This document shows positions 15,281 through 60,836 of a DNA stretch of 64,000 bases, piece after piece (the stretch's first letter is position 1; every line of letters starts with the position of its first letter). The position numbers and the translations under genes were made by a program. The notes beneath the pieces are model-generated. The model worked only from the letters and a program-made list of their open reading frames with translations, ran no database searches and was not told where the DNA came from. The stretch covers positions 1,511-65,510 of the forward strand of contig JBAZSC010000001.1 of the NCBI GenBank assembly GCA_041662665.1, in the 5' to 3' direction. This stretch comes from Patescibacteria group bacterium. GTDB taxonomy: Bacteria; Patescibacteriota; JABMPQ01; JAQVVF01.

Positions 15281-15346
15281 GAATTTATAAGTAAATTAGT
15301 AATAAGTAACTAGTAACTAGAATACAGTTTTTCTAATTACCAGTTA

Positions 15347-16390
15347 CTAATTACTAGTTGCAAGCATTTTAATTTTGTCATATTCTTTCAAGATTTGCAA
15401 CCCCTTAATTTGTCGCATTGAACCAGTTTTCGCTGTCCTCAAAACTCTCAAAGCTTCTTCCAAATCTAAAAAGCTAATATCTTTAAATTTCTCTAATTTC
15501 AATCTCAAAATCGCTCTTTGCAAAGATTTATCAAGAGCTAAAAATTCATTTAATTTCAAAGTATTTTCATCTAAGCTTAGCTCTGCCAATTTTAGTTTTG
15601 CGGTCCTTTCAATATAATCAAAATCATCTTTCAAAGTCTTTGCACTCTGGCAAATTGTTGATCTTAAATTTTTGTTATATCCTTCTTCCAAAAATGGCAC
15701 CAATTCATGCCTAATTTTGTTTCTTAAATAAATATTTTGTGAATTTGTGGAATCATTTCGATATTCCAAATGGTTTTCTTTCAAATAAAGCAAAATATCT
15801 CGCTTATAACAATTTAATAATGGCCTGATGATATTATTTTGTTCAAATTTAATTCCGCTCAATCCTTTTAATCCAGATCCTCTCAAGAAAAACATCAAAA
15901 TTGTCTCTGCATCATCATCCTTATTATGAGCAACTGCAATCTTATCTGCCTTTTCTTTAGCCAAAATTTCATTAAAATAATCATATCTAATTTTCCGGCA
16001 TTTTGCTTCCAATCCCTTATCTTTTAAATCTAAATCTTTAACCTCTTTAACATAAATTGGCAAATTATATTGTTCAGCCAGTTTTCGTGCCAAAATCATA
16101 TCCAAAAAAGAATCTTTTCCTCTCAAATTATAATTTACGTGCGCTAATACCAAATCAAAATCAAGAATATTTTGGACTTTCCTGTCTGCCGTAGTTTCAG
16201 CGAAGGCAGATAATTCATTACTTTTGACTTTAGATTTTAGACTTTTAATCTTACACAAAATATCCAGCAAGCATACGGAGTCGGGTCCAGAAGACAAACC
16301 TAAAATAACCTTCTCGCGAGGCTTAATTAAATTATAATCTGAAATTGTTTTTAATACTAGATCTTGCATAAGTAAGCGGTAGTTTAGCAT
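15347..16390 (-). CDS. tilS: tRNA(Ile)-lysidine synthetase
   Basis: 347 aa; PP-loop GLSSGPDSVCLL; TilS-type C-terminal region. Confidence 0.85.
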   Translation of the reverse strand: MLNYRLLMQDLVLKTISDYNLIKPREKVILGLSSGPDSVCLLDILCKIKSLKSKVKSNELSAFAETTADRKVQNILDFDLVLAHVNYNLRGKDSFLDMILARKLAEQYNLPIYVKEVKDLDLKDKGLEAKCRKIRYDYFNEILAKEKADKIAVAHNKDDDAETILMFFLRGSGLKGLSGIKFEQNNIIRPLLNCYKRDILLYLKENHLEYRNDSTNSQNIYLRNKIRHELVPFLEEGYNKNLRSTICQSAKTLKDDFDYIERTAKLKLAELSLDENTLKLNEFLALDKSLQRAILRLKLEKFKDISFLDLEEALRVLRTAKTGSMRQIKGLQILKEYDKIKMLATSN

Positions 16391-21446: not shown

Positions 21447-21926
21447 ATGCTCGAAAATCGAACTGAATCAGAAAGAAAACGAATTTTCTGGATTCTATTA
21501 ATTGGCACAGGTTTAATTATTTTTTTTATTTGGTTAATCCTTTTAATAAAAGGCTTTGTTCTTGATTCTGTAAAATTAGCAGAAACAAAAAAACAGGATG
21601 CAGTTCAACAAAATACTAATTCATTCGGCGATCAATTTAAAGAAGCCATTAATGGTTTTAAAAAACTTGATGTTCAAGGCAAAATATTAAATATTAAAGA
21701 TGGCATAAAGAATTTAAATATCAATGAAAATATCGAAAATAATAATTTGAACCAAAACGAAGAACAAGCTTTGAATTCAAATGAAAATGTTAATCAAGAA
21801 CAAGTCCAAGTTAACGAACAAGAAAAAACAGAAGAGCCAGTTAGTCAGGAAAATCCAGAAAACTTAAATCAAGAAGAAAATTTAAATACACCATCAATAC
21901 CTCGTTTGCCAGTTGAAAACGAGTAA
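21447..21926 (+). CDS. membrane-anchored low-complexity (N/Q/E-rich) protein
   Basis: 159 aa; single N-terminal TM then N/E/Q-rich repeats. Confidence 0.4.
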   Translation: MLENRTESERKRIFWILLIGTGLIIFFIWLILLIKGFVLDSVKLAETKKQDAVQQNTNSFGDQFKEAINGFKKLDVQGKILNIKDGIKNLNINENIENNNLNQNEEQALNSNENVNQEQVQVNEQEKTEEPVSQENPENLNQEENLNTPSIPRLPVENE

Positions 21927-21929
21927 TAA

Positions 21930-21990
21930 GTAACAAGTAACTTGTAACAAGTAAACGTTTTTACTAATTACTAGTTACTTATTACTAATT
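21930..21990. repeat. word-built inverted repeat (gtaacaagtaac / gtaactagtaac family)
   Basis: taagtaacaagtaacttgtaacaagtaaac...ttactaattactagttacttattac; family recurs at 15290-15360, 29140-29190, 48125-48160, 50500-50545, 60760-60825. Confidence 0.5.
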
Positions 21991-27396: not shown

Positions 27397-27468
27397 AGCG
27401 GGTGAGCGGAATCGAACCGCCGTATCGAACTTGGCAAGCTCGCATAATAGCCATTATATTACACCCGC
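27397..27468 (-). tRNA. tRNA-Gly (anticodon GCC), AT-rich D-arm
   Basis: minus strand gcgggtgtaatataatggctat...cgagc ttGCCaa gttcg...ggcggttcgattccgct cacccgc t; first 10 nt overlap the 3' end of the upstream CDS. Confidence 0.75.
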
Positions 27469-28130
27469 ATATTATTTATTTCTTTTGACATTAATTTAAT
27501 CCAAACAAGAACTTTTTCTTTTAAAAAATGACTGTCGTTAACTCTTATGAGACAAATTCCATTCATAAGCCTTGCTGTTGGATGTTTACCATAGATTGTG
27601 CTGCTTTTATCAAAATTTTTAATCGAAATCCCAGTTTTTGAACACCAATATTTTTTACATTCGAAGTCATCTAGATCTGGATATAAAACAAGAGATATAC
27701 GAATTTTTCCTAAATCAACATTACAAATTTTTATAAGAAAATTATAAAATAATTTAATCATTTCTGCATCTGTATTTGATAATCTAAGGGGATATTTCAA
27801 GACTCTATCACCTTCACCCCAATAGAGCATTAAACCAGCAACAAAAAGTAAATTATTTTTTAATACGTGAAATTGGTTTATGGCTTCAACTCTACATTTC
27901 TTAATCTTCGTTAATCTTAGAGCGCCTTGCCTCTTTCTTATAGTTTTAAGATTCTCAATAGAATCAATTTTAGCCTTGTTTATCAAAGATTTTTTAATCA
28001 CGTTTGACCAGCTACAATTTTTGAACCAATAGTGCATCGTGCTTTTTGGAATACCTAATTTATTACTTATTTCATTATAACTAGCACCCTTTTTTCTGAG
28101 TAAAATTGCAGAATGTTTATCATTCCTCAT
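27459..28130 (-). CDS. HTH-domain protein with LAGLIDADG-like motif (putative free-standing homing-endonuclease-like gene), paralog 1
   Basis: 223 aa; N-terminal HTH (GASYNEISNKLGIPKSTMHYWFK); VAGLMLYWGEGD motif; C-terminal ...INNMRV* encoded by atgcgggtgtaa = tRNA-Gly acceptor stem; paralog at 50894..51577. Confidence 0.5.
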   Translation of the reverse strand: MRNDKHSAILLRKKGASYNEISNKLGIPKSTMHYWFKNCSWSNVIKKSLINKAKIDSIENLKTIRKRQGALRLTKIKKCRVEAINQFHVLKNNLLFVAGLMLYWGEGDRVLKYPLRLSNTDAEMIKLFYNFLIKICNVDLGKIRISLVLYPDLDDFECKKYWCSKTGISIKNFDKSSTIYGKHPTARLMNGICLIRVNDSHFLKEKVLVWIKLMSKEINNMRV

Positions 28131-29118: not shown

Positions 29119-29188
29119 ACACACGAAGTTAATTAGTAATTAGTAACTAGTAACTAGCGACGTCGTCGGTCTAATTACTAATTACTAA

Positions 29189-29749
29189 TTACTTATTTTC
29201 AGTAGATATTTCAAGACCTCGTTTTTCTAATTCACTTAACACAAATTCAAGCGTCTCGCCTGGCTCTTTATCACTTGTCTCAACTACTAAATCATATATG
29301 GAAAGATTAGAAATGTCAATGCCATATATCGATTTATATCGTTTTGCTTCGCTCTTTTCTCGCATCTCTACTTTTTTTGAAGTTACATCTAATGTTTCAT
29401 TTTCGCGATGAGCAATTCTCTCTAATCTAATATCAATTGGAGCAGTCACCCATATCTTTACAAAATCATTATTCTGTTCGCGATGTGCAAACCAGCCAGA
29501 CAATCTTCCTTCGACAATGCAATTCTCATGAGAATCAGCAAAATTCATTACTTGTCGATCTAAATTAGTATCAATCGATGGGTCATTTTCGATTTGCTTA
29601 TTAAATTCTTCTACGCTTAATCCTCTTTTTTCAGCCATTTCTCGAAAAATTTTGCCAGCATAAATATAATCAAAGCTCAAAACTTTGTTTAAATTTTTGC
29701 ATAATGTTGTTGTACCGCTACCAGGTAGACCGCTAACCGTTATTTTCAT
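29189..29749 (-). CDS. cmk: cytidylate kinase, archaeal type
   Basis: MKITVSGLPGSGTTTLCKNL...IFRE...EGRLSGW...LVVETS pattern matches archaeal-type CMP kinase; start moved to the ATG after AGGTG RBS (the ORF-caller start was GTG). Confidence 0.8.
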   Translation of the reverse strand: MKITVSGLPGSGTTTLCKNLNKVLSFDYIYAGKIFREMAEKRGLSVEEFNKQIENDPSIDTNLDRQVMNFADSHENCIVEGRLSGWFAHREQNNDFVKIWVTAPIDIRLERIAHRENETLDVTSKKVEMREKSEAKRYKSIYGIDISNLSIYDLVVETSDKEPGETLEFVLSELEKRGLEISTENK

Positions 29750-31765: not shown

Positions 31766-31850
31766 AAAAAACAATTAACAATTAACTTTTAACAATTAAC
31801 AAAATATACTAAAAGTTAACTGTTAAATGTTAATAGTTAATTGTTTAAAT

Positions 31851-33044: not shown

Positions 33045-33251
33045 AAAATCCGCACTTTTTAAAGCCTATTTAACAGGCTTTTTTTATTTTTAAATCACAT
33101 CCGCTTATATCCGCATTAGAATCCGCGCATTTCCGTATCGCAAATATATAAAAATTTATGCTATATACAATAAATGCGCCCAAAACACAACAAAACAATA
33201 ATTAATGAAATAAAAAAAGAGGCGTTAACCTCTAAAAGAAAAAAAAGAACT

Positions 33252-34997
33252 TCAGCGTGCAACCTGCAAGCTGTATCCATTCGGATCATCATGAAGACTG
33301 ACATCAAGTCCAGGAGTAGGACTTGCAACATCAGGCGTCAACAACATCCAGTTGCCAAGCGTGCTCGAGAAATTGAAGTAGACATATGCCATCGTTGTCG
33401 GCAACGGATAGGTCATCATCTTCAATGCTTCGTCATACTGACCATGCACGTAATCACGCAGATAGTATTCGTTGCTGACAGGATCGAAAGCATACTCTTC
33501 AGTCCAGAAATAAACTCCAGGCCAATTCACTGCTTCATCACCCATCAGATAGATGTTGGAAGCGTCAGCGAAGACATCCAGACCATGTGTCATCTGAGCG
33601 ATCACATGTTCGTCAGTCACACCATCGCAGTCGTTGTCGATTCCGTCAGGAAATTCGATCGCCTGCGGATGAATCTGATCGTTGTTGTCATCGCAATCAA
33701 CTGCATCCGGATAACTATCAGAATCAACATCGTCTGCATTGACGCATGCTTCTTCATCAGTCTCACCATCGCAGTCGTTGTCCAATGCATCGCAAGTTTC
33801 CGGAACCGGATTCATCGGCACAGCATTGCAATAGGTCTTGTTCGGCGAAAGCTGGTCCGGATTACAGATCATCTCGCCAAGAGTTGCGCATTCGCCAACC
33901 CCAACCATGCAAGGATCGCCAAGTCCAATGAAGTCTTCGTCAGTCTTGCCATCGCAGTTATTGTCAATGCCGTCGCAGATCTCCGGAGTTCCAGAGTTCA
34001 GAACAGCATTGCAGACCATCTGGCCATCAGCATTGCACATGAATGTTCCAACCGAAACGCAATTGCCATCGCCAACGAAGCATTCTGCACCCAAGCCAAT
34101 GAAATCATCGTCCACCAAACCATCGCAGTCATTGTCCTTGCCATCGCAGATCTCATCAGTTCCATCGATCACGGCAGCATTGCATTCCAGACCAGAGCCA
34201 TCCGCAGTGCAGATATACACGCCCTGGTTGAAACAAACGCCAACTCCGCGTTCACATGTCTGATTCAGATTCACGAAGTCCTCGTCAGTCGATCCATCGC
34301 AGTCATTGTCCTTGCCATCACAAGCTTCTGCAACTGGCGAAACCTCACCTTCACAATTCCAGTTGCCATTCGTGCAAGTGTTGATACCAGGATTGCATTC
34401 ACCTTCCGAAATCCCACAAGGCATCGTCATCTGATCAGTGACGCCATCGCAATCGTTGTCGACATTGTCACAGACTTCTTCAGAAGGCAAACCTTCAACA
34501 GCATCGCACTTCATCGTGTCCTTGCTTCCGCTGCAGATATAGAATCCAGCAGATTCACAAGCACCGATACCAACAAGGCAAGGCTGATTCAGCATCACGT
34601 AATCTTCATCAACTGCATCATCGCAATCGTTGTCCTTGTAATCGCAGAGCTCAAGAGCACCAGGATAGACATCGGAATTGCGAGGATCGCAGTCAACAGT
34701 GCAATCGTCATAGGAATCGCCATCGAAATCAGCATAGTCCACAATCTGATCGCAGTTGTTGTCAATCAAATCACCACAGATTTCTTCAGCTCCAGGCTTG
34801 ATCGACGAATTATTGTCATTGCAATCGCCTGTTTCAGGAGTGAATCCATCGCCATCCTGATCGTTTCCACAGTAATTGTAAACTTCATTCATCGGCTTTG
34901 AAATCGTGTTCAGATCCTGATTGTCATCATTGGTTGCATCGAAACATCCACAAACAGAAACCAACATCAACAATACACACAATCTCTGCTGTCTCAT
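33252..34997 (-). CDS. secreted Cys-rich repeat protein with >=9 C-D-x-x-D-N-D-C-D-G-x-x-D-E putative metal-binding repeats; visibly GC-rich (foreign-looking) gene
   Basis: 581 aa; signal peptide MRQQRLCVLLMLVSVCGC; repeats CDGKDNDCDGSTDED etc.; CAGGAGGGCGAG RBS; antisense ORF 33174..34901 judged spurious. Confidence 0.65.
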   Translation of the reverse strand: MRQQRLCVLLMLVSVCGCFDATNDDNQDLNTISKPMNEVYNYCGNDQDGDGFTPETGDCNDNNSSIKPGAEEICGDLIDNNCDQIVDYADFDGDSYDDCTVDCDPRNSDVYPGALELCDYKDNDCDDAVDEDYVMLNQPCLVGIGACESAGFYICSGSKDTMKCDAVEGLPSEEVCDNVDNDCDGVTDQMTMPCGISEGECNPGINTCTNGNWNCEGEVSPVAEACDGKDNDCDGSTDEDFVNLNQTCERGVGVCFNQGVYICTADGSGLECNAAVIDGTDEICDGKDNDCDGLVDDDFIGLGAECFVGDGNCVSVGTFMCNADGQMVCNAVLNSGTPEICDGIDNNCDGKTDEDFIGLGDPCMVGVGECATLGEMICNPDQLSPNKTYCNAVPMNPVPETCDALDNDCDGETDEEACVNADDVDSDSYPDAVDCDDNNDQIHPQAIEFPDGIDNDCDGVTDEHVIAQMTHGLDVFADASNIYLMGDEAVNWPGVYFWTEEYAFDPVSNEYYLRDYVHGQYDEALKMMTYPLPTTMAYVYFNFSSTLGNWMLLTPDVASPTPGLDVSLHDDPNGYSLQVAR

Positions 34998-35483
34998 CTT
35001 CTCGCCCTCCTGTTGTGGAGACCCGCAGGTCTCTCTGTTGTCGGACCCAATATTCCAATATATATACGTAGAAAGAGCAATACCAGAATATAATCTATTT
35101 TTTAGAATATGTCAAGCCTTTTGGCTAGAATTAGGACAAAAAAGCAAAATTTAGGAATAAATAATAAATTGCTTTTTCTAAGCCAAAATAACAGCAATTA
35201 AAACCTAAATTCAAAGATTGCTATATTTTGCTTATTTTAAGCCAAAATAACAATATTCGTAATTCGTATCATTTGCATTTATTCGTATATTTGTATTATA
35301 TTTAGGAAATACTATTGACAAAAATATAATAGTATGCTACTCTTAATAGCTGTGTTAAAAGCCTCAAAAATAAACAATAGTACCTAAAAACCTATTTTCG
35401 CCTCAAATTTGAGAGAAAGGAAGCATCAGATATTTAATATTAGTTATTCAGATCTTCTATCTTTTTCTCAATTTTGAGGCAAT

Positions 35484-35506
35484 TTCCTTCCAGTGCTGGA
35501 AGGACG
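35484..35506 (+). promoter_or_regulatory. perfect palindrome/hairpin tccttccagtgctggaagga upstream of small-peptide ORF
   Basis: ccttccag words recur in the 70-bp direct repeats at 35644-35713 and 36036-36105. Confidence 0.4.
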
Positions 35507-35521
35507 GTCAAGGAGGATTGA

Positions 35522-35608
35522 ATGGAGAACTTCGACATCGCGGTTGCTCTGGTACTCATTGCAGCGCTGTCCTTCGGGCTCGGCTACTGGCTTCGTGGAA
35601 GGCACTAG
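35522..35608 (+). CDS. small hydrophobic peptide (28 aa) MENFDIAVALVLIAALSFGLGYWLRGRH, type I toxin-like
   Basis: AAGGAGGATTG RBS 6 nt upstream; single TM helix + basic/aromatic C-terminus; GC-rich. Confidence 0.35.
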   Translation: MENFDIAVALVLIAALSFGLGYWLRGRH

Positions 35609-35643
35609 CCTTCCGCACTTTGCTACCCGCACCTTGCTACCTG

Positions 35644-35713
35644 CCGTATTCGATCTCTGATCGTCTACGGCCCTTCCAGAGTTTACAAATATCTTTTGTA
35701 GATTGTGGAAGGA
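35644..35713. repeat. 70-bp direct repeat, copy 1 (ccgtattcgatct...ggcccttccagagtttacaaat...ttgtagattgtggaagga)
   Basis: near-identical copy at 36036-36105; contains the ccttccaga...tggaagg hairpin. Confidence 0.65.
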
Positions 35714-35757
35714 TAGTTCACTACAGGAGATAGCTCCTGTCAAAAGAGGAGGACACA

Positions 35758-35988
35758 ATGTTGTCCGCAGCGTTGCTCGGGATCCTGGTGTGGGTGGCGA
35801 TCGTGGTCTTCTGCGGGATCATGGTACCCTGCGGGATGGCAATCGTCGATCGTAAGATCGACGACATCAAGCTCATCCCCGGGTTCACGATGGAGATGGC
35901 GAAGCGGACGTGGTTCGTCTTGCCCATCGTCATCGTGTGCAACATGATCTTCGTGGCTGCACTCACGTTCTACCAGACCGGTCTCTGA
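35758..35988 (+). CDS. small two-TM membrane protein (76 aa), GC-rich
   Basis: AAGAGGAGGACACA RBS; flanked on both sides by the 70-bp direct repeat. Confidence 0.45.
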   Translation: MLSAALLGILVWVAIVVFCGIMVPCGMAIVDRKIDDIKLIPGFTMEMAKRTWFVLPIVIVCNMIFVAALTFYQTGL

Positions 35989-36035
35989 TCTTCTCACGAT
36001 CTTCCTTTCGCTTCTTCACAGCTCTTTGCTACTAG

Positions 36036-36105
36036 CCGTATTCGATCTTCGATCGTTTTACGGCCCTTCCAGAGTTTACAAATCATTTTGTAGATTGTGG
36101 AAGGA
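36036..36105. repeat. 70-bp direct repeat, copy 2
   Basis: ccgtattcgatcttcgatcgttttacggcccttccagagtttacaaatcattttgtagattgtggaagga. Confidence 0.65.
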
Positions 36106-36416
36106 AAAAATAATTAACTTCAATGTTACAAAACATTATAAAAGCAAAGATTTATGATCTTTATACAAGATTCATAACATCTCCAATTGGTTTATATCTA
36201 GTTTTCAAAAAATAACAAACGTCCCCCATTGTCCGCCAAAGTCTCAAGACGAAGGCGGATAATTGGGGGATTTTTGTTTTCAATAAAATCTGTTAAAATC
36301 AAAGTAGTTATAAAGTCCTTAAAGTTATAAAGTTTATAAAGTCTACGACTTTCCGAACTTTATAACTTTAAAAACTTTACAAACTTTGTGAACTTCGTGA
36401 TTTAAAGATTTCTATA

Positions 36417-40337: not shown

Positions 40338-40437
40338 TATAGCCACCACATTTCGAATTATAAATTCCAAATGAAAAATGAAAAATTTTTAATTATCGTA
40401 ATTTATAATTTTTCATTTAAAATTTATAATTCGTATC

Positions 40438-40509
40438 TGCCCCCAGCACGAATTGAACGCGCATCTCTCCCTTAGGACGGGATAGCTCTATCCGTTGAGC
40501 TATGGGGGC
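40438..40509 (-). tRNA. tRNA-Arg (anticodon CCT)
   Basis: minus strand gcccccatagctcaacggatagagc...gtCCTaa...gcgcgttcaattcgtgc tgggggca. Confidence 0.75.
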
Positions 40510-40650
40510 CGGATAGAATCTAATCAAATCAACCATAACAATACAATTATATATGAAAAATAACACTTGGTCAATTCATTTTCTTGCCAAAATTAATATA
40601 TTATGCTACTTTACGTTGAACGTTCTTTCACAACCAGAGGGAGGAAAACA

Positions 40651-41352
40651 ATGGCAAGACAACAAGTTTTAGTTGAAGATTTGATTCGTCAAGAAGAGGC
40701 AAGATTTATTGATACAATGGGAGATCTGGAAGCGCAAAGATCAGCAGAAAGAAATGCTGAACAAGAAATCGATAGCGCAATTACAAGAATGCGCGATACA
40801 GTGTCAACTGCTTATCCAAGTATTTCCACTGATGAACTTAATCGGCGTTTGACTGAAACTCGCTTGACTCTTCGTCGCCAAGTCGGACTTGAACCAGCAT
40901 CTTCAAGACAAAGTCAAATACAGCGATCACCTAGCGAAGAAAGCTTTTCAAGCAAAAATATAAATGCCATCATAGTAATGGTTCTTGCTTTACTCGCAAT
41001 TTGTGTAGGTGGCTTACTCTTTGGAGCGTATATCGCTGATGACTGGTTAACAACAACAGATCAGCCAGCTGAAACTGAAAGTGATGTGATTGTCTCCATT
41101 CTTGCAACGCCATTATTTAATAATATTGAAGCAGATATAACAATCGCTGTAGATAGAGATGTCGATGAGGTTATTCTTTACCGTAATACAAGCGTAGTCA
41201 ATAAATGGAACAAAGGAACTATTTTTAGTAGCCGTGAAGTTCATACAAGCGGCACCTATGTCTATTTCGCCGAAGTGTTCAAGGACAACAGAAAGACTAC
41301 CAGCAATCAAGTCCAGGTAGTCTACGGACAACCAAAAGAGGAGGCAAAGTAA
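40651..41352 (+). CDS. hypothetical membrane-anchored protein
   Basis: ORF 40603..41352 trimmed to MARQQ after AGAGGGAGGAAAACA RBS; one TM helix mid-protein. Confidence 0.45.
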   Translation: MARQQVLVEDLIRQEEARFIDTMGDLEAQRSAERNAEQEIDSAITRMRDTVSTAYPSISTDELNRRLTETRLTLRRQVGLEPASSRQSQIQRSPSEESFSSKNINAIIVMVLALLAICVGGLLFGAYIADDWLTTTDQPAETESDVIVSILATPLFNNIEADITIAVDRDVDEVILYRNTSVVNKWNKGTIFSSREVHTSGTYVYFAEVFKDNRKTTSNQVQVVYGQPKEEAK

Positions 41353-41353
41353 A

Positions 41354-43270
41354 ATGACGTTTCTCTGGGCTTTGATCGTAAGTTTGTTTGGCGCACAGAG
41401 CCTTGTAATTGACAATCGAAAGACAAGCTACATTTTCCACGCAGTCATTCGTTGCGTTGTTTACTTGGTTTTGATATGGCTCATCCAGTATAAAGTTTTG
41501 ATCACTTTTGATGGCATCAGAACATTTACGGTAATTCTATGTCTGTTTTTGATCAGCAACGGCTATGATCTATTTATCAATAGTGATTGTGGTGATGGAG
41601 AAGTCAGTAATTCAGGACTTGTAACAATGGTTATCGGAATTCTAGTCTTAATTGCTCTGCCAATTTGTACTAGCGATTGTGGCCATGCAGACACGCTTTA
41701 CCAAAAAGCAGCTTCAATGCAAGTTGATGCAAGCAAGTTCAATCAAAATCCAGTTGATGAAAATCATATTCGAGTTGTGCCAAGAGAAACAGCTTTGAGA
41801 ATTGCTCGTGAAAAGATTTCTTCAAGCGGTCAAAACTATGGCGCCTATTACCAGTTTGAAGATGCGACAATGACTATTCAGAAGGTTAATGACAGATTGT
41901 ATTGGGTCGCGCCAATGGAATTTGGCGGATTCTTCAAATCAATGAATGCAGGAAAAACATCACCAGGCTACATCATGATTTCAGCTGAAGATGAGACAGA
42001 AAAGCCTCGATTGATTACCAAAAAAGCTGACAAATCAGAAATGAAAATGCTATATCTAATGTCAGCATATTTTGGGAACGCGCTAGATAGATATTTGTAT
42101 AATGAGCATCCAGATTGGTACCTCGCTGATTTCTCGTTTGAAATTGATGAGCAGTTGAATCCATGGCAAGTGGTTACAGTTCTTGATTGTTTCAAGGGTT
42201 ACGATTATTACACTATAAAGGGTGTCTTGGTTGTCAATCCGGAAACAGGTGCAGAGAAATTCTACAAAGTAAATGATATTCCAAACTGGGTTGATCGAGC
42301 TGTACCTCAAGAATTGGCAATTGATTATTTCAAATGGTGGGGCACTTACAAGCATGGTTGGATGAACAATGTGAATGCCAATCCAGACTTGAAAAAGCCA
42401 ACAGAAATTGGTGAAAAGAGCGCTGTTGAAATGGTTTGGGGATCTGACGGTGAGCCGTATTGGTTCACAGGCTTTACCTCAATGAATGACAATGATCAAT
42501 CGCTAGTCGGCAAAGCTTTCATGGATTCAAGGACTGGCAAGTTCTTCTTTCTTCCTGCAAGTGGTGCAACTGAAGAGCGAATTGAAAGCGATATCTTGGC
42601 AGCACTTGGCAAGCAAGTTGTTGAGCAATCACCAACTGAGCCTATTCCTTACAATATGTATGGTCAGCCAAACTGCTGGGTTGCACAAGTGATTTCAATG
42701 TCAGGAAAGAGTCATTCCGGAGGAGCTCTTGTTAAAATTGCAATCGTAAATGGTGATACATCTTCACCACCAATTCTGGCTGATAGCAAAAAGGAAGCAC
42801 TGACACTATTCAAAAAGACTTTGTCACAACGAGGAATTCAGGCAACAGTCAGTGACACAAGCGAAGTCAAAGAATACAAGGGTAAGATTGACCGCCTTAG
42901 CATTATCCCGCAAGAAAAATCAACCAGCATTCGCTTCAGTCTCGAAGGAATGCCATTGGAATTTGCTTGTGATGTCATGAAGTCTGATCAAAGCAAGACA
43001 TCTTTGACACTAGCCAAGCCTGGTGATGTTGTCAGTGTCAAATACTTTGAAACCAAAGAGCGAGTCGTGACAGTTGATGATTACACAGTAGAAGGACAAT
43101 CCCCAATTATCTCGCCAAATCAAGAAAGATCTGACGAAATGATGAGACAACAAGAAGAGTTAGAGCAAGAGCAAGATCCACATAGAGTTCTTCCAGGCCT
43201 AGAGGGACTAGAAGAAATAGTCAATCCAAATAGTAGAAAGCCAGATTGGCGAGGTCTTATTCTCTACTAA
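41354..43270 (+). CDS. large hypothetical protein with N-terminal TM helices (638 aa), translationally coupled to upstream gene
   Basis: GAGGAGGCAAAG RBS inside the end of the upstream gene; ATG 1 nt after its stop; no family recognised. Confidence 0.5.
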   Translation: MTFLWALIVSLFGAQSLVIDNRKTSYIFHAVIRCVVYLVLIWLIQYKVLITFDGIRTFTVILCLFLISNGYDLFINSDCGDGEVSNSGLVTMVIGILVLIALPICTSDCGHADTLYQKAASMQVDASKFNQNPVDENHIRVVPRETALRIAREKISSSGQNYGAYYQFEDATMTIQKVNDRLYWVAPMEFGGFFKSMNAGKTSPGYIMISAEDETEKPRLITKKADKSEMKMLYLMSAYFGNALDRYLYNEHPDWYLADFSFEIDEQLNPWQVVTVLDCFKGYDYYTIKGVLVVNPETGAEKFYKVNDIPNWVDRAVPQELAIDYFKWWGTYKHGWMNNVNANPDLKKPTEIGEKSAVEMVWGSDGEPYWFTGFTSMNDNDQSLVGKAFMDSRTGKFFFLPASGATEERIESDILAALGKQVVEQSPTEPIPYNMYGQPNCWVAQVISMSGKSHSGGALVKIAIVNGDTSSPPILADSKKEALTLFKKTLSQRGIQATVSDTSEVKEYKGKIDRLSIIPQEKSTSIRFSLEGMPLEFACDVMKSDQSKTSLTLAKPGDVVSVKYFETKERVVTVDDYTVEGQSPIISPNQERSDEMMRQQEELEQEQDPHRVLPGLEGLEEIVNPNSRKPDWRGLILY

Positions 43271-44794: not shown

Positions 44795-44871
44795 GGGAAC
44801 GTGGGAAATGAGAGATGAGAAATGGGAAGTTGTTCCCACATCCCACTTCTCACGTTCACGCTTCACATTTT

Positions 44872-44942
44872 CGGGACATAGTATACCGGTAGTACGCGTC
44901 CTTCGGGAGGATGTAGACTGAGTTCGATTCTCAGTGTCCCGA
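44872..44942 (+). tRNA. tRNA-Pro (anticodon CGG)
   Basis: cgggaca tagtataccggtagtac...ttCGGga...gagttcgattctc tgtcccg a. Confidence 0.8.
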
Positions 44943-45070
44943 TAATCGAATAACAAAATAACAAAATTCTAAATAACAAAATTGCCGACGTCGTAATTTA
45001 GTTATTTAGCATTTAGCCCGCCTGCATCGCTATGCGAAGCATTGCGGGCAGGTTATTTATAATTCACGCT

Positions 45071-45141
45071 GGGCCTATATTATAGTGGTAATATATCGCA
45101 TTCGCATTGCGGGGACGCGAGTTCGATTCTCGCTAGGTCCA
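45071..45141 (+). tRNA. tRNA-Ala (anticodon CGC), AT-rich D-arm
   Basis: gggccta...tcgca ttCGCat tgcgg...gcgagttcgattctcgc taggtcc a; G3:U70 present. Confidence 0.7.
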
Positions 45142-45224
45142 AATCAACTTTTAACAATTAACAGTTAACATTTAACAATCGCAAAAAGTGTTAATTGTTA
45201 AAAGTTAATGGTTAAATGTTAAAA

Positions 45225-45296
45225 GGGCAATTAGCTCAGTGGTAGAGCGTTCCGTTCACATCGGAGAGGCCAGTGGTTCGATACCACTATTGCCCA
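45225..45296 (+). tRNA. tRNA-Val (anticodon CAC)
   Basis: gggcaattagctcagtggtagagc...ttCACat...gtggttcgataccac attgccc a. Confidence 0.85.
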
Positions 45297-47144: not shown

Positions 47145-47393
47145 AAAATTAGATTAATTTATTTAAAGATATAATAGCAACAATTAAAAATAATTTCTAT
47201 AGAAAAACAAAAAGCCCAGGAAAAACCTGGGCAATTTGTTTAGAATGGAAAGAGCAAATATTATTTCAAATCTAATTATATTGAAAAATAAAAATTAGTC
47301 AAGATAATTATCAACAGCAAAAAATTTTAAAATTTTAAAAAAGCATGCTATATTAAATTAACAAAATTATTTACTAATTATTTAATAAAAAAC

Positions 47394-47954: not shown

Positions 47955-48165
47955 AAAAAGTTAAATAAGTTAGACTAGTTAGACTAGTTAAATAAAAAAG
48001 GCGAGCAATTTTGCTCGTCTTTTCGTTTATGTTTGCTAGAATCGGCTAAGGTTGGAGTGAGATTTAATGAAAAATCTTTTTAAAGATCAATCATTTAAAC
48101 CTTAGCCAGTTTTAGAAAACGAGTTTACCAGTAACTAGTAATTAGTAACTAGTAACTCGAATTAC

Positions 48166-48208
48166 GATTCTCACAATCTTGAAATTTCTTTCAAGACTCT
48201 GAGAATCC
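48166..48208. repeat. degenerate TIR element (gattctcacaatcttgaaa...tttcaagactctgagaatc)
   Basis: diverged member of the gatcctcacaattttggaa...ttccaaagctgtgaggatc family. Confidence 0.45.
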
Positions 48209-48295
48209 GCCAGCATAATATAATAAAAATATGAATAATCGCTAGCGGAATAATGTGCTTCTTAGGGAACAAAATATTAGGGAACAAAATTCTTT

Positions 48296-48556
48296 CTAGG
48301 AATGGTAAACGTACCCCTTTCCATCCATATCCCAGACGTAGATCTTCCAGCCGTCAACGTTGTCCTTAGCCGTCGACACCATCGGGTAGGAGCTGTTCAG
48401 GATGGTCATCTCGAGCATCCCGTACAGAACGATCGCCATCGGGTAGTTCTTGTGGTAGCACGAGGGCACGTACCCGACCTCCTGGACACACGCGATGGCT
48501 TTCTGGTAGAGAACAAATCCAAGCGCGTCCAGTCCGTTCACCTGGTTCGTGATCAT
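48296..48556 (-). CDS. hypothetical protein (86 aa), GC-rich cargo gene
   Basis: GGAGAGG RBS; palindromic operator-like agcatcatg...catgatgct upstream; bounded by TIR elements. Confidence 0.45.
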   Translation of the reverse strand: MITNQVNGLDALGFVLYQKAIACVQEVGYVPSCYHKNYPMAIVLYGMLEMTILNSSYPMVSTAKDNVDGWKIYVWDMDGKGYVYHS

Positions 48557-48655
48557 CTGCCTCTCCGTTGCCTGTTCTCACAGGCTCAAGTGGCTGCACT
48601 TGCAGCATCATGATGACATTTTATCAGCATGATGCTACAAGTCAGATGTTTTAAA

Positions 48656-48719
48656 GATCCTCACAATTTTGGAAACTAGTAGAGAGTAATACACTCATGT
48701 TCCAAAGCTGTGGGGATCC
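48656..48719. repeat. MITE-like element with terminal inverted repeats gatcctcacaattttggaa / ttccaaagctgtggggatc
   Basis: 64 bp; longer family members at 48920-49016, 49674-49790, 50026-50100. Confidence 0.65.
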
Positions 48720-48809
48720 TGCAAAACTTACGTCTTACAGGAAAGGTACAATCGCCGAGAGAGGATCTCGACTTCCCGTTGCCCTATTCGTAGAATCAGG
48801 CATTGGGCA
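48720..48809. repeat. 90-bp repeat 'B' (tgcaaaacttacgtcttacaggaaaggtacaatcgccgagagaggatctcgacttcccgttgccctattcgtagaatcaggcattgggca), copy 1
   Basis: identical copy at 49791-49880; each abuts the 3' end of a minus-strand small-peptide ORF. Confidence 0.7.
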
Positions 48810-48817
48810 ATCAATGT

Positions 48818-48901
48818 TCAGGCGAGTAAACCGTACAAGCACGCAGAAGCAATGATGAGGGCGAAAAGAAATACACCATCAAGCACCAGATTCTTGATCA
48901 T
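48818..48901 (-). CDS. small hydrophobic peptide (27 aa) MIKNLVLDGVFLFALIIASACLYGLLA, type I toxin-like
   Basis: CAGGAGGAACGACAA RBS; single TM helix; stop immediately adjacent to repeat B. Confidence 0.35.
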   Translation of the reverse strand: MIKNLVLDGVFLFALIIASACLYGLLA

Positions 48902-48919
48902 TTGTCGTTCCTCCTGAAA

Positions 48920-49016
48920 GATCCTCACAATTTTGGAACAAGAGATTTCAGAAGGGGAAGGGATTTCCTTCCGACCTCCGACATCCGATTTCCGATTTCC
49001 AAAGCTGTGAGAATCC
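48920..49016. repeat. MITE-like TIR element (long form with internal ccgacctccgacatccgatttccgatttcc word block)
   Basis: same termini as 48656-48719. Confidence 0.65.
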
Positions 49017-49273
49017 GCCAGAAAAAATAATTGAATATTTTACTAGCGGAGAAAGTACCAACAATAATAATGAGCACAGGTGGTCCATTCTTCCGAGTCC
49101 TCCGCCTTCTGCTACAACTCAAGCTCTGCTTGGTCGTCGTATGCAGATTAAGGCTGAACCTTGAGGACGAACAAAGCCTTACAGCTTTGCCCTTCTCGGA
49201 CCGCGGGTTTTGCAGGGAACCCATGGTTAAACCCTCCAGCAAGTCTTAACGCTCTTGCTGGTAGCGTGACACA

Positions 49274-49534
49274 CTACTTTTCGTCCATCTTGAACGAAAA
49301 GTCGTGGACTCCACCAAGCTTATCCTGCACCCTGACGTACAGAGTGCCGTAAGTGGGGATCCGACCCGCCGTGCACGCGTATGTGCGGCTCTCGACGTTT
49401 CCCGAGGCGAACAGACTCGCCTCGCGGATGATGTTCCTTCCCTCCTCCGCCAGGAACCAGGTCCTGGCGATCTCGCCCGTCCAACCGGGCATTGGTCCAC
49501 CGACCAACGCCAAACACTCATCCATCCTCGTCAT
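49274..49534 (-). CDS. hypothetical protein (86 aa), GC-rich cargo gene
   Basis: GAAGGAGAG RBS + ATG; imperfect 45-bp palindrome aatcaccatcataatgattattgagtaatcaacataatggtgatt upstream; overlapping alternative-frame ORFs judged spurious. Confidence 0.45.
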   Translation of the reverse strand: MTRMDECLALVGGPMPGWTGEIARTWFLAEEGRNIIREASLFASGNVESRTYACTAGRIPTYGTLYVRVQDKLGGVHDFSFKMDEK

Positions 49535-49673
49535 AAAACTCTCCTTCGCCCTTTTTTAGGGCGGCTTGCCTCCAGATTGACACCGAGTGAAATCTCGGTA
49601 TGGTCACTCTGTCGGCTCTTTTCAATCACCATCATAATGATTATTGAGTAATCAACATAATGGTGATTAAAAA

Positions 49674-49790
49674 ATATTTTAAAGATCCTCACAATTTTGG
49701 AAACTAGTAGAACAAGGGATTTCAGAAGGGGAAGGGATTTCCTTCCGACTTCCGACATCCGATTTCCGATTTCCAAAGCTGTGGGGATCC
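49674..49790. repeat. MITE-like TIR element (long form)
   Basis: gatcctcacaattttggaaactagtagaacaagggatttcagaaggggaagggatttccttccgacttccgacatccgatttccgatttccaaagctgtggggatcc. Confidence 0.65.
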
Positions 49791-49880
49791 TGCAAAACTT
49801 ACGTCTTACAGGAAAGGTACAATCGCCGAGAGAGGATCTCGACTTCCCGTTGCCCTATTCGTAGAATCAGGCATTGGGCA
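49791..49880. repeat. 90-bp repeat 'B', copy 2 (identical to 48720-48809)
   Basis: read directly. Confidence 0.7.
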
Positions 49881-49889
49881 GGAGTTAGC

Positions 49890-50009
49890 TCAGTGATTGA
49901 TGAAATACCACATGAGGTAGGAGACGACCATCCCAACGCCTACGCCGGCGAGGAATGTGACTGCGAGTTTTGCCTTCAAGGGCAACAGATCCCATTCGCT
50001 CTGTGGCAT
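49890..50009 (-). CDS. small hydrophobic peptide (39 aa) MPQSEWDLLPLKAKLAVTFLAGVGVGMVVSYLMWYFINH, type I toxin-like
   Basis: TAGGAGGGCGTC RBS; one TM helix with aromatic C-terminus; stop abuts repeat B. Confidence 0.35.
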   Translation of the reverse strand: MPQSEWDLLPLKAKLAVTFLAGVGVGMVVSYLMWYFINH

Positions 50010-50025
50010 GACGCCCTCCTAGTTT

Positions 50026-50100
50026 GAATCCTCACAATTTTGGAATAGTTTCCGACTTCCGAAGCTCTAAAGCTCCGACGTTCCAAAGCTGTGAGGATCC
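50026..50100. repeat. MITE-like TIR element
   Basis: gaatcctcacaattttggaatagtttccgacttccgaagctctaaagctccgacgttccaaagctgtgaggatcc. Confidence 0.6.
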
Positions 50101-50339
50101 GGCAAAATATAAATAACAAAGTATTAAATAGATTGCCGAAAAAGAAAGGGTGCCCTATTTCAATACCGCTTGCGCAGTAAAGAAACAAAGCGTCCTAGAG
50201 TATATGCCATTTCACTGGCTAGCTAGTCAAAAACAAGGCGTTTTTGACGGATGCGCTAGCGAAGTGAAAAGTTCATAAAGTCCATAAAGCTATAAAGTAC
50301 GGAAAGCTGGCAAGCATCAGAATCAGTTCGTGGAAGAAT

Positions 50340-50440
50340 CAGATATCAGAGTTCAACGCTCTGACGTTCAGACGCTCCGAAGTCCCGACGTTCCGAAGCT
50401 CCCACGCTCCCACGCTCCCACGTCCAACCTCCCAGGTTTT
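50340..50440. repeat. GC-rich word repeat (gttcaacgctctgacgttcagacgctccgaagtcccgacgttccgaagctcccacgctcccacgctcccacg)
   Basis: same word family as 16402-16548. Confidence 0.5.
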
Positions 50441-50804
50441 GTCCCAAAAAAATAGGACAAGCCAATATTTGAAAGAGTGATCAAATACTGACTTGTCCGA
50501 ATTTAGCTTCTTCAAGTTACTAGTTACTAGTAACTAGTAACTAGCTCGCTTGGATCTCACTCCAATATTTTGCTTTTTGCCACATTTCGTGACAATAAGC
50601 TATATTCACTTTTAAATAACAATTTTTATTGTATAATCTATTATACGCTAGTATTGTTATTTTGTCAAGGGTATTTCCAAAATATCAATTGTTTTTGGCT
50701 TATTTAAAGCAAATTAAAAATTAGATTTCTTATATATTTTACATAATAAATTATATACAATATATGCTTGATTTATTTTTGAAATGTATTAAAATAAGAA
50801 CTGA

Positions 50805-50893: not shown

Positions 50894-51577
50894 ATGAAGT
50901 CTCTAAGCCTTCGGCAAGAAATAATTACTTACCGAAAAAGTGGCTATTCCTACGGGATGATTAGCAAAAAATTTGGTTTATCAAAAAGTACCCTTAGTAC
51001 CTGGCTTAAAGAGATTCCATATACACCTAATAAAGAAGTTATTGATAGAATTGGAAATGCTCGTATGCAATCTGCCACATCGAAGCACAATCAGATGATG
51101 GCTGATATACAAAAAATGAGAAAAGTTGCAAAGGATGAATTAGGAAAATTATCAAAAAGAGATTTATGGATGCTTGGAATCGGTCTTTACATAGGTGAAG
51201 GCAATAAAGCATATGAACAAATAAGATTAACCAATTCCGATCCAAAAATCATACTATTAGCATTAGAATGGTTTAGAACGTTTTGCAATCTTAAAGAAGA
51301 AAATTTTAGAATTAGAATACATATTTATCCAGACATAGTTCCTGATGAAGCACTTAAATATTGGTCAAAAATAACAGGTCTCGCTGAAAAAAATTTTGAT
51401 AAAATTCAAATTGATAGACGTACTAATAAAGTAGCCAAAAAAAGAAGAACGCTTCCATTCGGCACAATTCAAATAGTTATAAAAAGTAATGGTAAGAAAG
51501 AATTCGGAAAAAGTCTTCATCGAAGAATCATGGGTTGGATTGATAATTCTTTAGAACAAATAAATGTGCGGGTGTAA
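50894..51577 (+). CDS. HTH-domain protein with LAGLIDADG-like motif, paralog 2; 3' end embedded in tRNA-Gly
   Basis: 227 aa; HTH GYSYGMISKKFGLSKSTLSTWLK; LGIGLYIGEGNK motif; C-terminal ...QINVRV* = aatgtgcgggtgtaa overlapping the tRNA-Gly(TCC) acceptor stem; homologous over the full length to 27459..28130. Confidence 0.5.
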   Translation: MKSLSLRQEIITYRKSGYSYGMISKKFGLSKSTLSTWLKEIPYTPNKEVIDRIGNARMQSATSKHNQMMADIQKMRKVAKDELGKLSKRDLWMLGIGLYIGEGNKAYEQIRLTNSDPKIILLALEWFRTFCNLKEENFRIRIHIYPDIVPDEALKYWSKITGLAEKNFDKIQIDRRTNKVAKKRRTLPFGTIQIVIKSNGKKEFGKSLHRRIMGWIDNSLEQINVRV

Positions 51578-59688: not shown

Positions 59689-60756
59689 ATGTCAATTTTC
59701 ACTCCAAAAAAACAAGCCTTTGGCATCGAAATCAGCGATGCTTCAATAAAAGTTCTCCAATTAAAAAAGGGAGGCAAGTTTTATAAACTCGTAGGTTACA
59801 ATGTTTTAAAAATTCCTCAAGGAATAGTCGTTTCTGGTGAAATAAAAGATTCTAAACTCCTAGCTTCATATATTCAAAAAGCAACAAATAGTGCAAAACC
59901 AAAAAAAATTTTTATTTCAAATGTAGTTTGTTCTCTTCCAGAAAACAAAACCTTTGTTAGAATACTAGAAATTCCTCAAATGAGCAAAGAAGAATTAAGC
60001 GAAGGAATAAAATGGCAAGCAGAGCAGTATATTCCATTGCCAATTGATACAGTATATCTTGATTGGCAAATTATCGAAACAATAGATAGCAGACAAAGGA
60101 TATTAGTTGCTGCAGCTCCAAAAAAAATTGTTGATAGTTATATCAATGTTTTGAAGATCGCTAGATTAAAACCACAGGTTTTAGATCTTGAAGAAGCAGC
60201 TGAAGCAAGAGCTTTGATTCCAGAAAATCAAAAAGAGGCGAGTCTCATTGTTGATATTGGTGCCACAAAAACAGTTTTCTTTGTTCAAGATCGAAAAATT
60301 GTTCCATTCGCTTCAAATACTCAAGAAGTTTGCGGTAATAAGTTCACCGAAAATATCAGCAAAGCTTTAAAAATAAATATCGAAAATGCCGAAGCAAAAA
60401 AAGCAGCTTGTTGCAGTCCAGATCTTTCAAATGAAGAAAAAACGTTATTGCAATCAATTTATCCATTGTTTGACTCACTTGCAACTCAGATTATTAAAAT
60501 AATTGGCTATTACCAAAATCATTTCAAATCCGCAAATCCAATTAACAACATAATTTTATGCGGTGGAGGAGCCAATATCTCCGGAATAGTTCCTCATCTT
60601 ACTTTGAAATTAAAAATGAAAATCTCAATAGCGAATCCACTAACTAATTTACCAGTCAAAAAAAGCTTGCCAATCAATAATCAAGACTTGCTTAGCTTAA
60701 CAACAGTTATTGGTCTTGGAATAAGAGGCGCAGAGATCGTGAAGTATAGTAAATAG
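59689..60756 (+). CDS. pilM: type IV pilus assembly protein PilM (actin-like ATPase fold)
   Basis: 355 aa; N-terminal GIEISDASIKVLQL and VDIGATKT actin-fold phosphate motifs. Confidence 0.8.
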   Translation: MSIFTPKKQAFGIEISDASIKVLQLKKGGKFYKLVGYNVLKIPQGIVVSGEIKDSKLLASYIQKATNSAKPKKIFISNVVCSLPENKTFVRILEIPQMSKEELSEGIKWQAEQYIPLPIDTVYLDWQIIETIDSRQRILVAAAPKKIVDSYINVLKIARLKPQVLDLEEAAEARALIPENQKEASLIVDIGATKTVFFVQDRKIVPFASNTQEVCGNKFTENISKALKINIENAEAKKAACCSPDLSNEEKTLLQSIYPLFDSLATQIIKIIGYYQNHFKSANPINNIILCGGGANISGIVPHLTLKLKMKISIANPLTNLPVKKSLPINNQDLLSLTTVIGLGIRGAEIVKYSK

Positions 60757-60836
60757 TAATTAGTAACTAGTAACTAGACTTTCGTTTCGTCAGTTTCTAG
60801 TTACTGATTACTAATTACAAGTTACAGCAAAACACA

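Follow-up and report, generated by a model that had tools for sequence, protein, structure and literature searches.

We analyzed a stretch of 64,000 nucleotides (hereafter, the window) of contig JBAZSC010000001.1 from a Patescibacteria group bacterium (assembly GCA_041662665.1), a member of the candidate phyla radiation (CPR). The minus strand of the window carries an open reading frame (ORF) for a 581-amino-acid (aa) protein built mainly of cysteine-rich repeats of the PF11617 (Cu-binding_MopE) family. This gene, referred to here as the window gene, has a codon usage that is strikingly different from that of its genome. The gene and its associated features are as follows, in the coordinates of the window:

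33252..34997, minus strand: coding sequence, including the stop codon, for the precursor of a probable surface lipoprotein with PF11617 repeats (ORF list, PF11617 match, identical protein elsewhere, dN/dS)
34944..34997, minus strand: predicted signal peptide with lipobox, aa 1-18, MRQQRLCVLLMLVSVCG/C (read from the sequence)
33609..34871, minus strand: repeat region, aa 43-463, with eight DNDCDG-type PF11617 cores (Pfam, regular expression, alignment and AlphaFold2)
33255..33608, minus strand: C-terminal domain of about 118 aa, aa 464-581, predicted to be beta-rich (HMMER and AlphaFold2)
35087..35115, minus strand: putative sigma-70-type promoter TTGACA-17-TATATT, 11 of 12 positions matching (sequence; almost invariant in the related genome L003)
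35071..35080, minus strand: leader element TTGCTCTTTC near the predicted 5' end of the transcript, which can pair with the Shine-Dalgarno (SD) region (minimum-free-energy folds)
35018..35033, minus strand: hairpin GAGACC-UGCG-GGUCUC (as mRNA) of the 5' untranslated region (sequence, and counterparts in L003, L070 and L151)
33210..33233, minus strand: intrinsic terminator-like hairpin AGAGGTTAACGCCTCT (33233-33218) followed by a T-run (sequence and folding)
33174..34901, plus strand: antisense ORF of 575 aa, codon-for-codon in register with the sense frame; not a gene

The window ORF is a real, functional gene. It occurs in three assemblies, and comparison with an ortholog of 74% identity (P0002) gave a dN/dS of 0.17, in agreement with the minus strand being the coding one, as proposed in an initial annotation of this DNA made from sequence alone. 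An identical protein (P0001) is present in two other assemblies and was found, together with its neighbors, on a 645,164-bp Patescibacteria group bacterium contig that holds P0001, P0028 and P0136. The same locus with the same flanks was recovered in the independent assemblies L001 (Logan) and L002 (JGI), which rules out an assembly artefact or chimerism. The gene forms a transcription unit of its own, in a CPR bacterium with a genome of approximately 645 kb; the window has a GC content of 0.344 and contains 17 scattered tRNA genes. The public gene call for P0001 (571 aa) starts 10 codons downstream of an upstream ATG. This upstream ATG is the better start, because a GGAGGG SD sequence lies 7 nt from it and the first residues are conserved in the ortholog.

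Read from this ATG, the N-terminus of the protein is MRQQRLCVLLMLVSVCGC, with a basic beginning, a hydrophobic core and a lipobox-like VCG/C. The lipobox pattern used was a signal peptide ending in [LVI][ASTVI][GAS]C. The end of the signal is conserved, being VCGC in the window protein and FCGC in the ortholog P0002 (MRQRWLSMMLMVFCG/C), and the signal of a distant homologue (P0050) ends in LILSA/C, of which LSA/C is a canonical lipobox. Judging from these sequences, the product is probably a lipoprotein precursor that would be exported via its N-terminal signal and then attached through a lipid at Cys18 to the outer face of the cell membrane. The export signal reported earlier is borne out.

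Both PF11617 and EGF/TSP3-like repeats had been considered for the repeat region. A Pfam scan assigned it to PF11617 in eight stretches (177.7 bits versus a cut-off of 27, E = 4.1e-53), and the only other match at E ≤ 1 was spurious. In particular, no match at E ≤ 1 was found to TSP_3 (PF02412), EGF_CA (PF07645) or Ldl_recept_a (PF00057), and NCBIfam gave no match for the protein. A strict regular expression detected seven C..D[ND][ND]C[DN] cores and one core without the first Cys (PDGIDNDCDG); the repeats thus number eight by both approaches, not the nine or more claimed before. The protein contains 44 Cys and 89 Asp residues, and in an alignment of 36 sequences the Cys pair and the D-N-D-C-D-G core columns are invariant or nearly so. 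The AlphaFold2 model built from this alignment has a mean predicted local distance difference test (pLDDT) score of 75.6, with values of ~85-95 across aa 130-400. It predicts a helix at aa 2-13, a disordered linker at aa 16-39 behind the signal, and a repeating unit composed of an acidic Cys-bracketed loop and a three-stranded four-Cys module in a regular E-E-E pattern. Five of the eight cores are followed by such a module, which is about 35 aa long and is predicted to form a three-stranded beta unit.

The C-terminal domain is beta-rich in the AlphaFold2 model (pLDDT 58-90) and has no Pfam or NCBIfam match. When 1.84 billion representatives were searched exhaustively with HMMER, only three clusters contained it: the window protein itself, P0135 and P0050. 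A metagenome scan with the C-terminal alignment revealed no new carrier of the domain, its output being swamped by the DNDCDG motif. The domain is specific to a small clade of the window organism. Foldseek searches against PDB with the full and C-terminal models gave nothing below an E-value of 0.01, and for the C-terminal domain only weak, generic matches to Ig/FnIII/CBM-like beta-sandwich folds were seen (E of 0.04 or above). Some homologues (P0020, P0073) carry PF03781. We also considered the C-terminal region as the target of a diversity-generating retroelement and rejected this: self-comparison of the window shows no repeat involving 33252-33650, there is no repeat pair, and no reverse transcriptase was present among the ORFs scanned.

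More than 5400 proteins match the PF11617/MopE-related family at E ≤ 1e-5. In NCBI, its members are named MopE-related protein or putative metal-binding motif-containing protein. The predominantly myxobacterial and deltaproteobacterial distribution pointed out initially was confirmed in 37 of the 66 genome loci with PF11617. The window protein has in common with these repeat proteins of Myxococcota and other bacteria the 30-aa D-N-D-C-D-G motif, present in eight copies, as well as a secreted or surface location and the alternation of repeats with four-Cys modules. It differs from them in its 0.34-GC Patescibacteria host, in its probable lipoprotein anchor in place of MYXO-CTERM or other anchors, and in its C-terminal domain, known from three clusters only. 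In addition, the codon usage of the window gene is far from that of its genome, unlike that of PF11617 members in other low-GC genomes. A literature search returned no description of such proteins in Patescibacteria. Homologues couple the same repeats to lectin, laminin-G, VWA, SRCR, fibrinogen-C or FGE-sulfatase domains (PF13385, PF00059, PF00092, PF00530, PF03781, PF00147). The repeats may therefore serve as a stalk on which a binding domain is displayed. The mature window protein would then be an elongated, disulfide-rich stalk, in which eight PF11617 modules alternate with small four-Cys beta modules, ending in the clade-specific beta-rich domain. Its most likely role would be to keep the binding domain at a distance from the cell surface, so that a partner cell or substrate can be contacted or adhered to.

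The name of the Pfam family suggests a different role, in which the window protein would be a copper-handling protein like MopE and CorA of methanotrophs (PDB 2VOV, 2VOW, 2VOX), with repeats that bind Cu and a function in scavenging or buffering extracellular copper. Besides the name, the abundance of Cys and Asp would fit this role, and data from immobilized metal affinity chromatography suggest that Cu(II) is bound weakly by residues 1-24 of MopE* (PMC3423442). However, the Cu(I) ligands of MopE are His132, His203 and Kyn130, a kynurenine, and the crystal model of MopE* begins at Gly47, with residues 1-46 absent (PMC3423442). The family profile touches only residues 6-48 of MopE* (2VOV), with an E-value of 0.21, and at E ≤ 0.01 there was no match to any PDB sequence. 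Since the motif does not contain the Cu(I) site, copper binding cannot be deduced from the Pfam name, and the label, which had been carried over in the initial annotation, does not transfer. The beta-domain of MopE that bears the Cu(I) site has no counterpart in the window protein, which has eight copies of the motif compared with the single N-terminal copy of MopE/CorA and contains only 5 His. Electron paramagnetic resonance gave no support for Cys coordination in MopE (PMC3423442), and the even, conserved spacing of Cys in the window protein suits structural disulfides. We consider a copper-handling role improbable, and "Cu-binding" should not be taken as the function of PF11617.

Calcium provides a better analogy. 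The core resembles the Ca2+-binding loops of TSP3 and LDLa. A C-rich motif of teneurin is also similar to the D-N-D-C-D-G core (PMC3278476), and Ca2+ stabilizes both MopE and CorA (PMC3423442, PMC3912023), which are surface-associated, as is predicted for the window protein. The likeness to teneurin, TSP3 and LDLa lies in Cys-bracketed acidic D-x-D-N-D-x-D-G-x-x-D loops and is an analogy only, as the window protein gave neither a TSP_3, EGF_CA or Ldl_recept_a profile match (E ≤ 1) nor a PDB sequence match at E ≤ 10. In searches of PDB sequences with the protein, its profile and a two-module fragment, the only match was that of the profile to MopE residues 6-48 (E = 0.21). By this analogy, the acidic loops are most likely stabilized by Ca2+, and the protein would most likely serve as a disulfide-rich stalk, stabilized by Ca2+, that displays a binding domain specific to the clade and may take part in cell contact.

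The near-consensus promoter would drive expression of the gene. The promoter is almost unchanged at the ortholog locus (L003), as are the first ~45 nt of the leader, and equivalent promoters precede homologues in L070 (TTGACA-17-TATTAT) and L151 (TTGACA-17-CATAAT). Further downstream, the hairpin (gagacc-cgca-ggtctc in the DNA, 35018-35033) is flanked by ctgttgt at 35010-35016 and 35035-35041. It ends 7 nt before the SD sequence (GGAGGG, 35005-35010) and 20 nt before the ATG. Its counterpart in L003 is GGGGCC-AUGA-GGCUCC, in which two pairs are changed on both sides and one G-C pair has become G-U. The leaders of the distant homologue (L070) and of a paralogous family (L151) likewise have a GC hairpin in this position, immediately 5' of the SD. 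Thus, of the hairpin and two flanking repeats described initially, the hairpin and the SD-proximal copy of ctgttgt are conserved, and the upstream copy is lost in L003. The leader from -55 to -1 is the most stable among 44 window ORFs. In the minimum-free-energy folds predicted for the leaders of the window gene, L003 and L070, (G)CUCUUU pairs with the SD region and encloses the hairpin, a fold that is supported by conservation, not by thermodynamics. Such a structured leader (5' CUCUUU element, GC hairpin and SD) could gate translation initiation. A search of the upstream region against Rfam gave nothing credible.

The leader element belongs to a decamer, TTGCTCTT(T/C), which occurs in the window at 2074-2083, 2698-2707, 35071-35080 (minus strand) and 47248-47257 (minus strand). 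It sits a few bases past -10-like TATAxT boxes at 2698 (plus strand, exact) and 2074 (plus strand, one mismatch), and precedes two paralogous genes (2109-2564 and 2739-3209, with DNA 70% identical over 320 nt) as well as the window gene. Possibly the decamer is an element that these genes have in common in their leaders or at their transcription starts, and one that can pair with the SD. Since it follows the -10-like boxes of two other window genes, the expression signals of the window gene are of host type.

The coding sequence, in comparison, stands out by its composition. The initial annotation had put its GC content at roughly 50%, far above the background, and had suggested a computation of GC at third codon positions (GC3). 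Both values proved to be deviant: the GC content is 0.478 compared with 0.344 in the window, and GC3 is 0.490 compared with a mean of 0.235 (standard deviation 0.053, maximum 0.373) in 42 other ORFs (z = 4.8). The excess is gene-wide, with GC3 of 0.44 in the signal, 0.50 in the repeats and 0.50 in the C-terminal domain. Under background codon use, the amino acids of the protein would give a GC3 of 0.255±0.016 (maximum 0.305 in 2000 resamplings); A at third positions amounts to 0.117 (0.269 expected) and T to 0.393 (0.476 expected). The gene uses AAG in 10 of 10 and CAG in 16 of 16 cases, TTC in 15 of 16 and ATC in 64%, contains no TTA, CTA or ATA, and has raised frequencies of CCG, TCG and ACG, with GAA, GCA/GCT and Gly codons at background level. 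Its codon usage is a specific dialect and not a plain GC shift. MopE genes in other low-GC genomes match the GC3 of their hosts (gene/host 0.15/0.20 in L005, 0.15/0.15 in L028 and 0.33/0.34 in L019; L017 likewise), and the PF11617 family is therefore not intrinsically GC3-rich. The resampling, together with these homologues from low-GC hosts, led us to reject the idea that the excess stems from the amino-acid composition or from GC driven by the repeats.

The same codon usage accounts for the antisense ORF. The sense frame contains 0 TTA, 0 CTA and 1 TCA codons, and the antisense frame stays open because these reverse complements of stop codons are missing. An antisense ORF of at least 500 aa appeared in 51% of resampling trials with the gene's own codon usage and in 0% with background usage. 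The antisense ORF is a by-product of sense codon usage; it is not a gene, as had been assumed, but its cause is codon usage and not the repeat structure that had been blamed. The opposite direction of cause, a second overlapping gene at 33174-34901 (plus strand) that shapes sense codon usage, could be argued from the length of the ORF, its exact register and the fact that 0 of 2000 background resamplings reached 500 aa. Nevertheless, the antisense frame is broken 2 times in the 74% ortholog (L003) and 14 times in L070, yet both keep the dialect, which is also found in genes without such an ORF. Its product would be of low complexity, with runs of the IAVVV type, and neither a promoter nor an SD was noted for it. 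With the frames broken in orthologs, a real antisense gene was rejected, and an overlapping gene is hardly credible as the source of the dialect.

The composition of the gene had initially been attributed to lateral acquisition. However, its 74% ortholog P0002 lies at the corresponding syntenic site of a related genome (L003), next to a 105-aa gene and the genes for pseudouridine synthase, cytidylate kinase and L19. The synonymous divergence (dS) between the two is 1.0, which matches that of the neighbors (0.4-1.5), and the GC3 of the ortholog is 0.44 versus ~0.2. As the promoter and leader are of host type, no close donor-side homologue was found, and the dialect is common to other surface genes of the clade, lateral acquisition is not supported as the explanation of the present composition. 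The best match outside the clade has 47% identity over about half of the protein, and the strongest by E-value has 40% over 64%. A donor search by codon-usage correlation over loci with enough coding sequence identified no donor (maximum r = 0.655). The ORFs read next to the gene included neither an integrase nor a transposase, and self-comparison of the window showed no direct repeats bracketing it. Among the features by which a recent island may be recognized, the locus shows deviant composition, and shows neither syntenic absence or discordant divergence nor mobility genes, repeats or a close donor. A recent transfer is excluded, and, judging from the orthologous sequences, the GC-rich codon usage predates the split of at least two species.

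The dialect is also retained over larger distances. The distant homologue P0050 (L070) shows 35% BLAST identity over 86% of the protein and 39-44% in the C-terminal domain. Its gene has a GC3 of 0.47-0.48 and lies in AT-rich intergenic DNA beside two other GC-rich genes for secreted proteins; it also adjoins a 0.30-GC gene (GC3 0.29). Moreover, the clade has a second MopE family (P0018/P0015/P0019/P0028), in which PF11617 repeats are combined with Laminin_G_3 and of which P0028, a 68-69% ortholog, belongs to the window's own genome. This family has ~46% identity to the window protein over ~390 aa of repeats and the same codon dialect and promoter-hairpin-SD layout; it differs in its greater length (949-957 aa), its laminin-G-type C-terminus instead of the orphan beta domain, and its locus. 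That locus is syntenic, with neighbors of GC3 ~0.2. In three related genomes the second family has a GC3 of 0.46-0.48 and an unrelated adjacent gene, which shares the dialect, of 0.41-0.43. The same dialect was found in L070, L151, L153 and L155, including unrelated neighboring secreted genes.

Such unrelated secreted or membrane genes lie at 5329-6435 in L151, 4548-5720 in L153, 3093-4193 in L155 and 549-2060 in L070, with GC3 of 0.41-0.60 versus ~0.2. The public gene call for the last of these (549-2132) crosses in-frame stop codons of table 11.

To judge whether the high GC3 is decaying or at equilibrium, we fitted a two-state (G/C versus A/T) model to third positions of conserved codons of the second family in three taxa. 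The log-likelihood was -1030.2 for a model stationary at GC3 0.475, -1034.4 for decay to the neighbors' 0.173 with a free root, and -1029.7 for the full model. The likelihood-ratio statistic against decay was 9.6 (P-value ~0.002), which none of 80 parametric bootstraps reached, and equilibria below ~0.27 were disfavored. Pairwise ratios of exchanges between strong (G/C) and weak (A/T) bases are tautological with composition. Parsimony polarization of synonymous changes was dropped in favor of likelihood, as a control with neighboring genes showed that the outgroup is partly saturated. Since the sister family is at compositional equilibrium, a gene-specific force would maintain its GC3, and selection on codon choice or mRNA is a likely kind of force.

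Our reading of the locus, to which we assign a probability of roughly 0.6, is that of a real CPR gene for a probable surface lipoprotein, with a PF11617 stalk, a clade-specific tip and a codon usage that is old, was not recently acquired and, in the sister family, appears to be maintained. The evidence favors a gene-class-specific, maintained codon usage, by the sister-family test, the codon pattern, the clade-restricted domain and the host-type promoter. Several points weigh against this reading. The function is wholly inferred, and Ca2+ binding is proposed from motif resemblance. The VCG/C of the window protein and the FCG/C of P0002 are atypical lipoboxes with a Cys at position -2. The fold energies of the leader are no better than those of shuffled sequences, and the individual z-scores are not significant. 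Neither the repeat nor the C-terminal domain matched a solved structure, by sequence or fold. The likelihood model is a simple two-state one restricted to conserved codons. For the family of the window gene itself (192 sites, outgroup L070), stationary and decay models of this kind fitted equally, an uninformative outcome, as the only outgroup is too distant.

The last result bears on a rival explanation, ancient acquisition with incomplete amelioration. The gene, or the ancestor of both MopE families, would have come from a GC-rich donor, for instance one of the Myxococcota, before the sampled species split, and its GC3 would still be drifting down to the host level of ~0.2. In addition to the three-taxon test on the window gene's family, which does not reject decay, the window/L003 counts are, by a pairwise two-state calculation, compatible with decay from a GC3 of ~0.68 in the ancestor, a further point against a maintained codon usage. 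PF11617 is most abundant in high-GC Myxococcota and Deltaproteobacteria, the best non-clade match (P0003) is from a 70%-GC genome, and GC3 is deviant as ancient acquisition would require. On the other hand, the sister family rejects decay to background, and the window gene keeps AAG and CAG throughout, yet has GAG in only 8 of 35 cases and GCC plus GCG at 9%. A retention that depends on codon type is not predicted by uniform neutral decay from G/C to A/T. Ancient acquisition would also have to accommodate P0050, still at high GC3 beside its 0.30-GC neighbor, the C-terminal domain without a relative outside the clade, the AT-rich, host-type promoter and leader, and the failure to match any donor codon usage. 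We regard it as the less likely explanation, although it is the most probable of the rivals.

A maintained codon usage could be part of a broader pattern. It is possible, and we propose this only tentatively, that this clade of ultra-small Patescibacteria has two codon dialects within one genome, one of a set of surface and secreted genes that includes both MopE families and unrelated neighboring genes (GC3 ~0.45-0.5) and one of the rest (~0.2), the former being maintained by selection and not inherited from a donor. The surface dialect would be characterized by near-exclusive use of AAG, CAG and TTC and by almost no A-ending codons outside those starting with G. Candidate forces would be the pace of translation for co-translational export or folding of disulfide-rich repeats, or mRNA stability.

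With regard to tRNAs, the genome, at 34% GC and ~645 kb, has kept four with C at anticodon position 34: Pro-CGG, Ala-CGC, Val-CAC and Arg-CCT (44871-44943, 45070-45142, 45225-45296 and 40438-40509). Codons read by such tRNAs are rare in bulk genes (CCG 5%, GTG 6%). In the window gene, CCG (43%) and GTG (24%) are both common, GCG is not raised (6% versus 7%) and AGG is absent. The existence of two dialects, if true, would explain the presence of Pro-CGG, Ala-CGC and Val-CAC in so small and AT-rich a genome.

Patescibacteria rely on physical contact with other cells, and their surface proteins are almost all uncharacterized. The window gene is a clean candidate for a contact or surface protein, with a strong promoter, an exported repeat stalk and a clade-specific tip domain. 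The kind of repeat protein is known; the tip domain is clade-specific, and the persistent second codon dialect, which other surface-protein genes of the clade have as well, is the most interesting aspect of the gene. Should a second, selectively maintained dialect be confirmed across the whole genome, this minimal genome would offer an unusual example of codon usage specific to a class of genes and a handle on the control of surface-protein expression in these organisms. The locus also calls for caution in the search for genomic islands, as its large GC3 deviation dates far back, has been inherited vertically and is at equilibrium in the sister family.

Several other features of the window were noted. 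A GC-rich (0.5-0.57) island at 35480-36105 lies directly upstream of the window gene and divergent from it. It contains small hydrophobic ORFs at 35522-35608 (28 aa) and 35758-35988 (76 aa, GC3 0.88), the latter of which encodes a protein that matches only itself among 5.8 billion proteins. Each of these ORFs is followed by a direct repeat of ~80 nt (35634-35713 and 36026-36105, 89% identical), which folds as two adjacent hairpins (z = -7.1 and -6.5).

A second GC-rich (0.44-0.50) stretch, of 2.3 kb, at 48150-50450, has no ORF over 115 aa and no credible Rfam match. It contains small GC-rich minus-strand ORFs (about 27, 40, 86 and 86 aa) between imperfect copies of a bipartite hairpin, GATCCTCAC-AA-TTTTGGAA ... 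TTCCAAA-GC-TGTGAGGATC, with a variable tip, as well as an exact 110-bp direct repeat (48700-48809 = 49771-49880). In its layout, the stretch is reminiscent of a cassette array of the integron type with attC-like sites (a cluster of attC sites lacking an integron-integrase, CALIN); no integrase was seen in the window.

Near-perfect AT-rich palindromes of ~65-90 nt, similar to one another, are located in intergenic regions at 36300-36388, 40354-40433, 29131-29197, 31769-31846, 21922-21986, 60749-60825 and 15287-15364. They are probably bidirectional terminators or a dispersed repeat. At 40603-43270, there are two adjacent ORFs of 249 and 638 aa without a Pfam match, in which GC is moderately elevated (GC 0.40, GC3 0.29-0.36). 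Finally, two ORFs of ~225 aa, at 27459-28130 (minus strand) and 50894-51577 (plus strand), both adjoin tRNA genes and have similar N-terminal helix-turn-helix regions, and the second of them shows weak helix-turn-helix/transposase-type Pfam matches.

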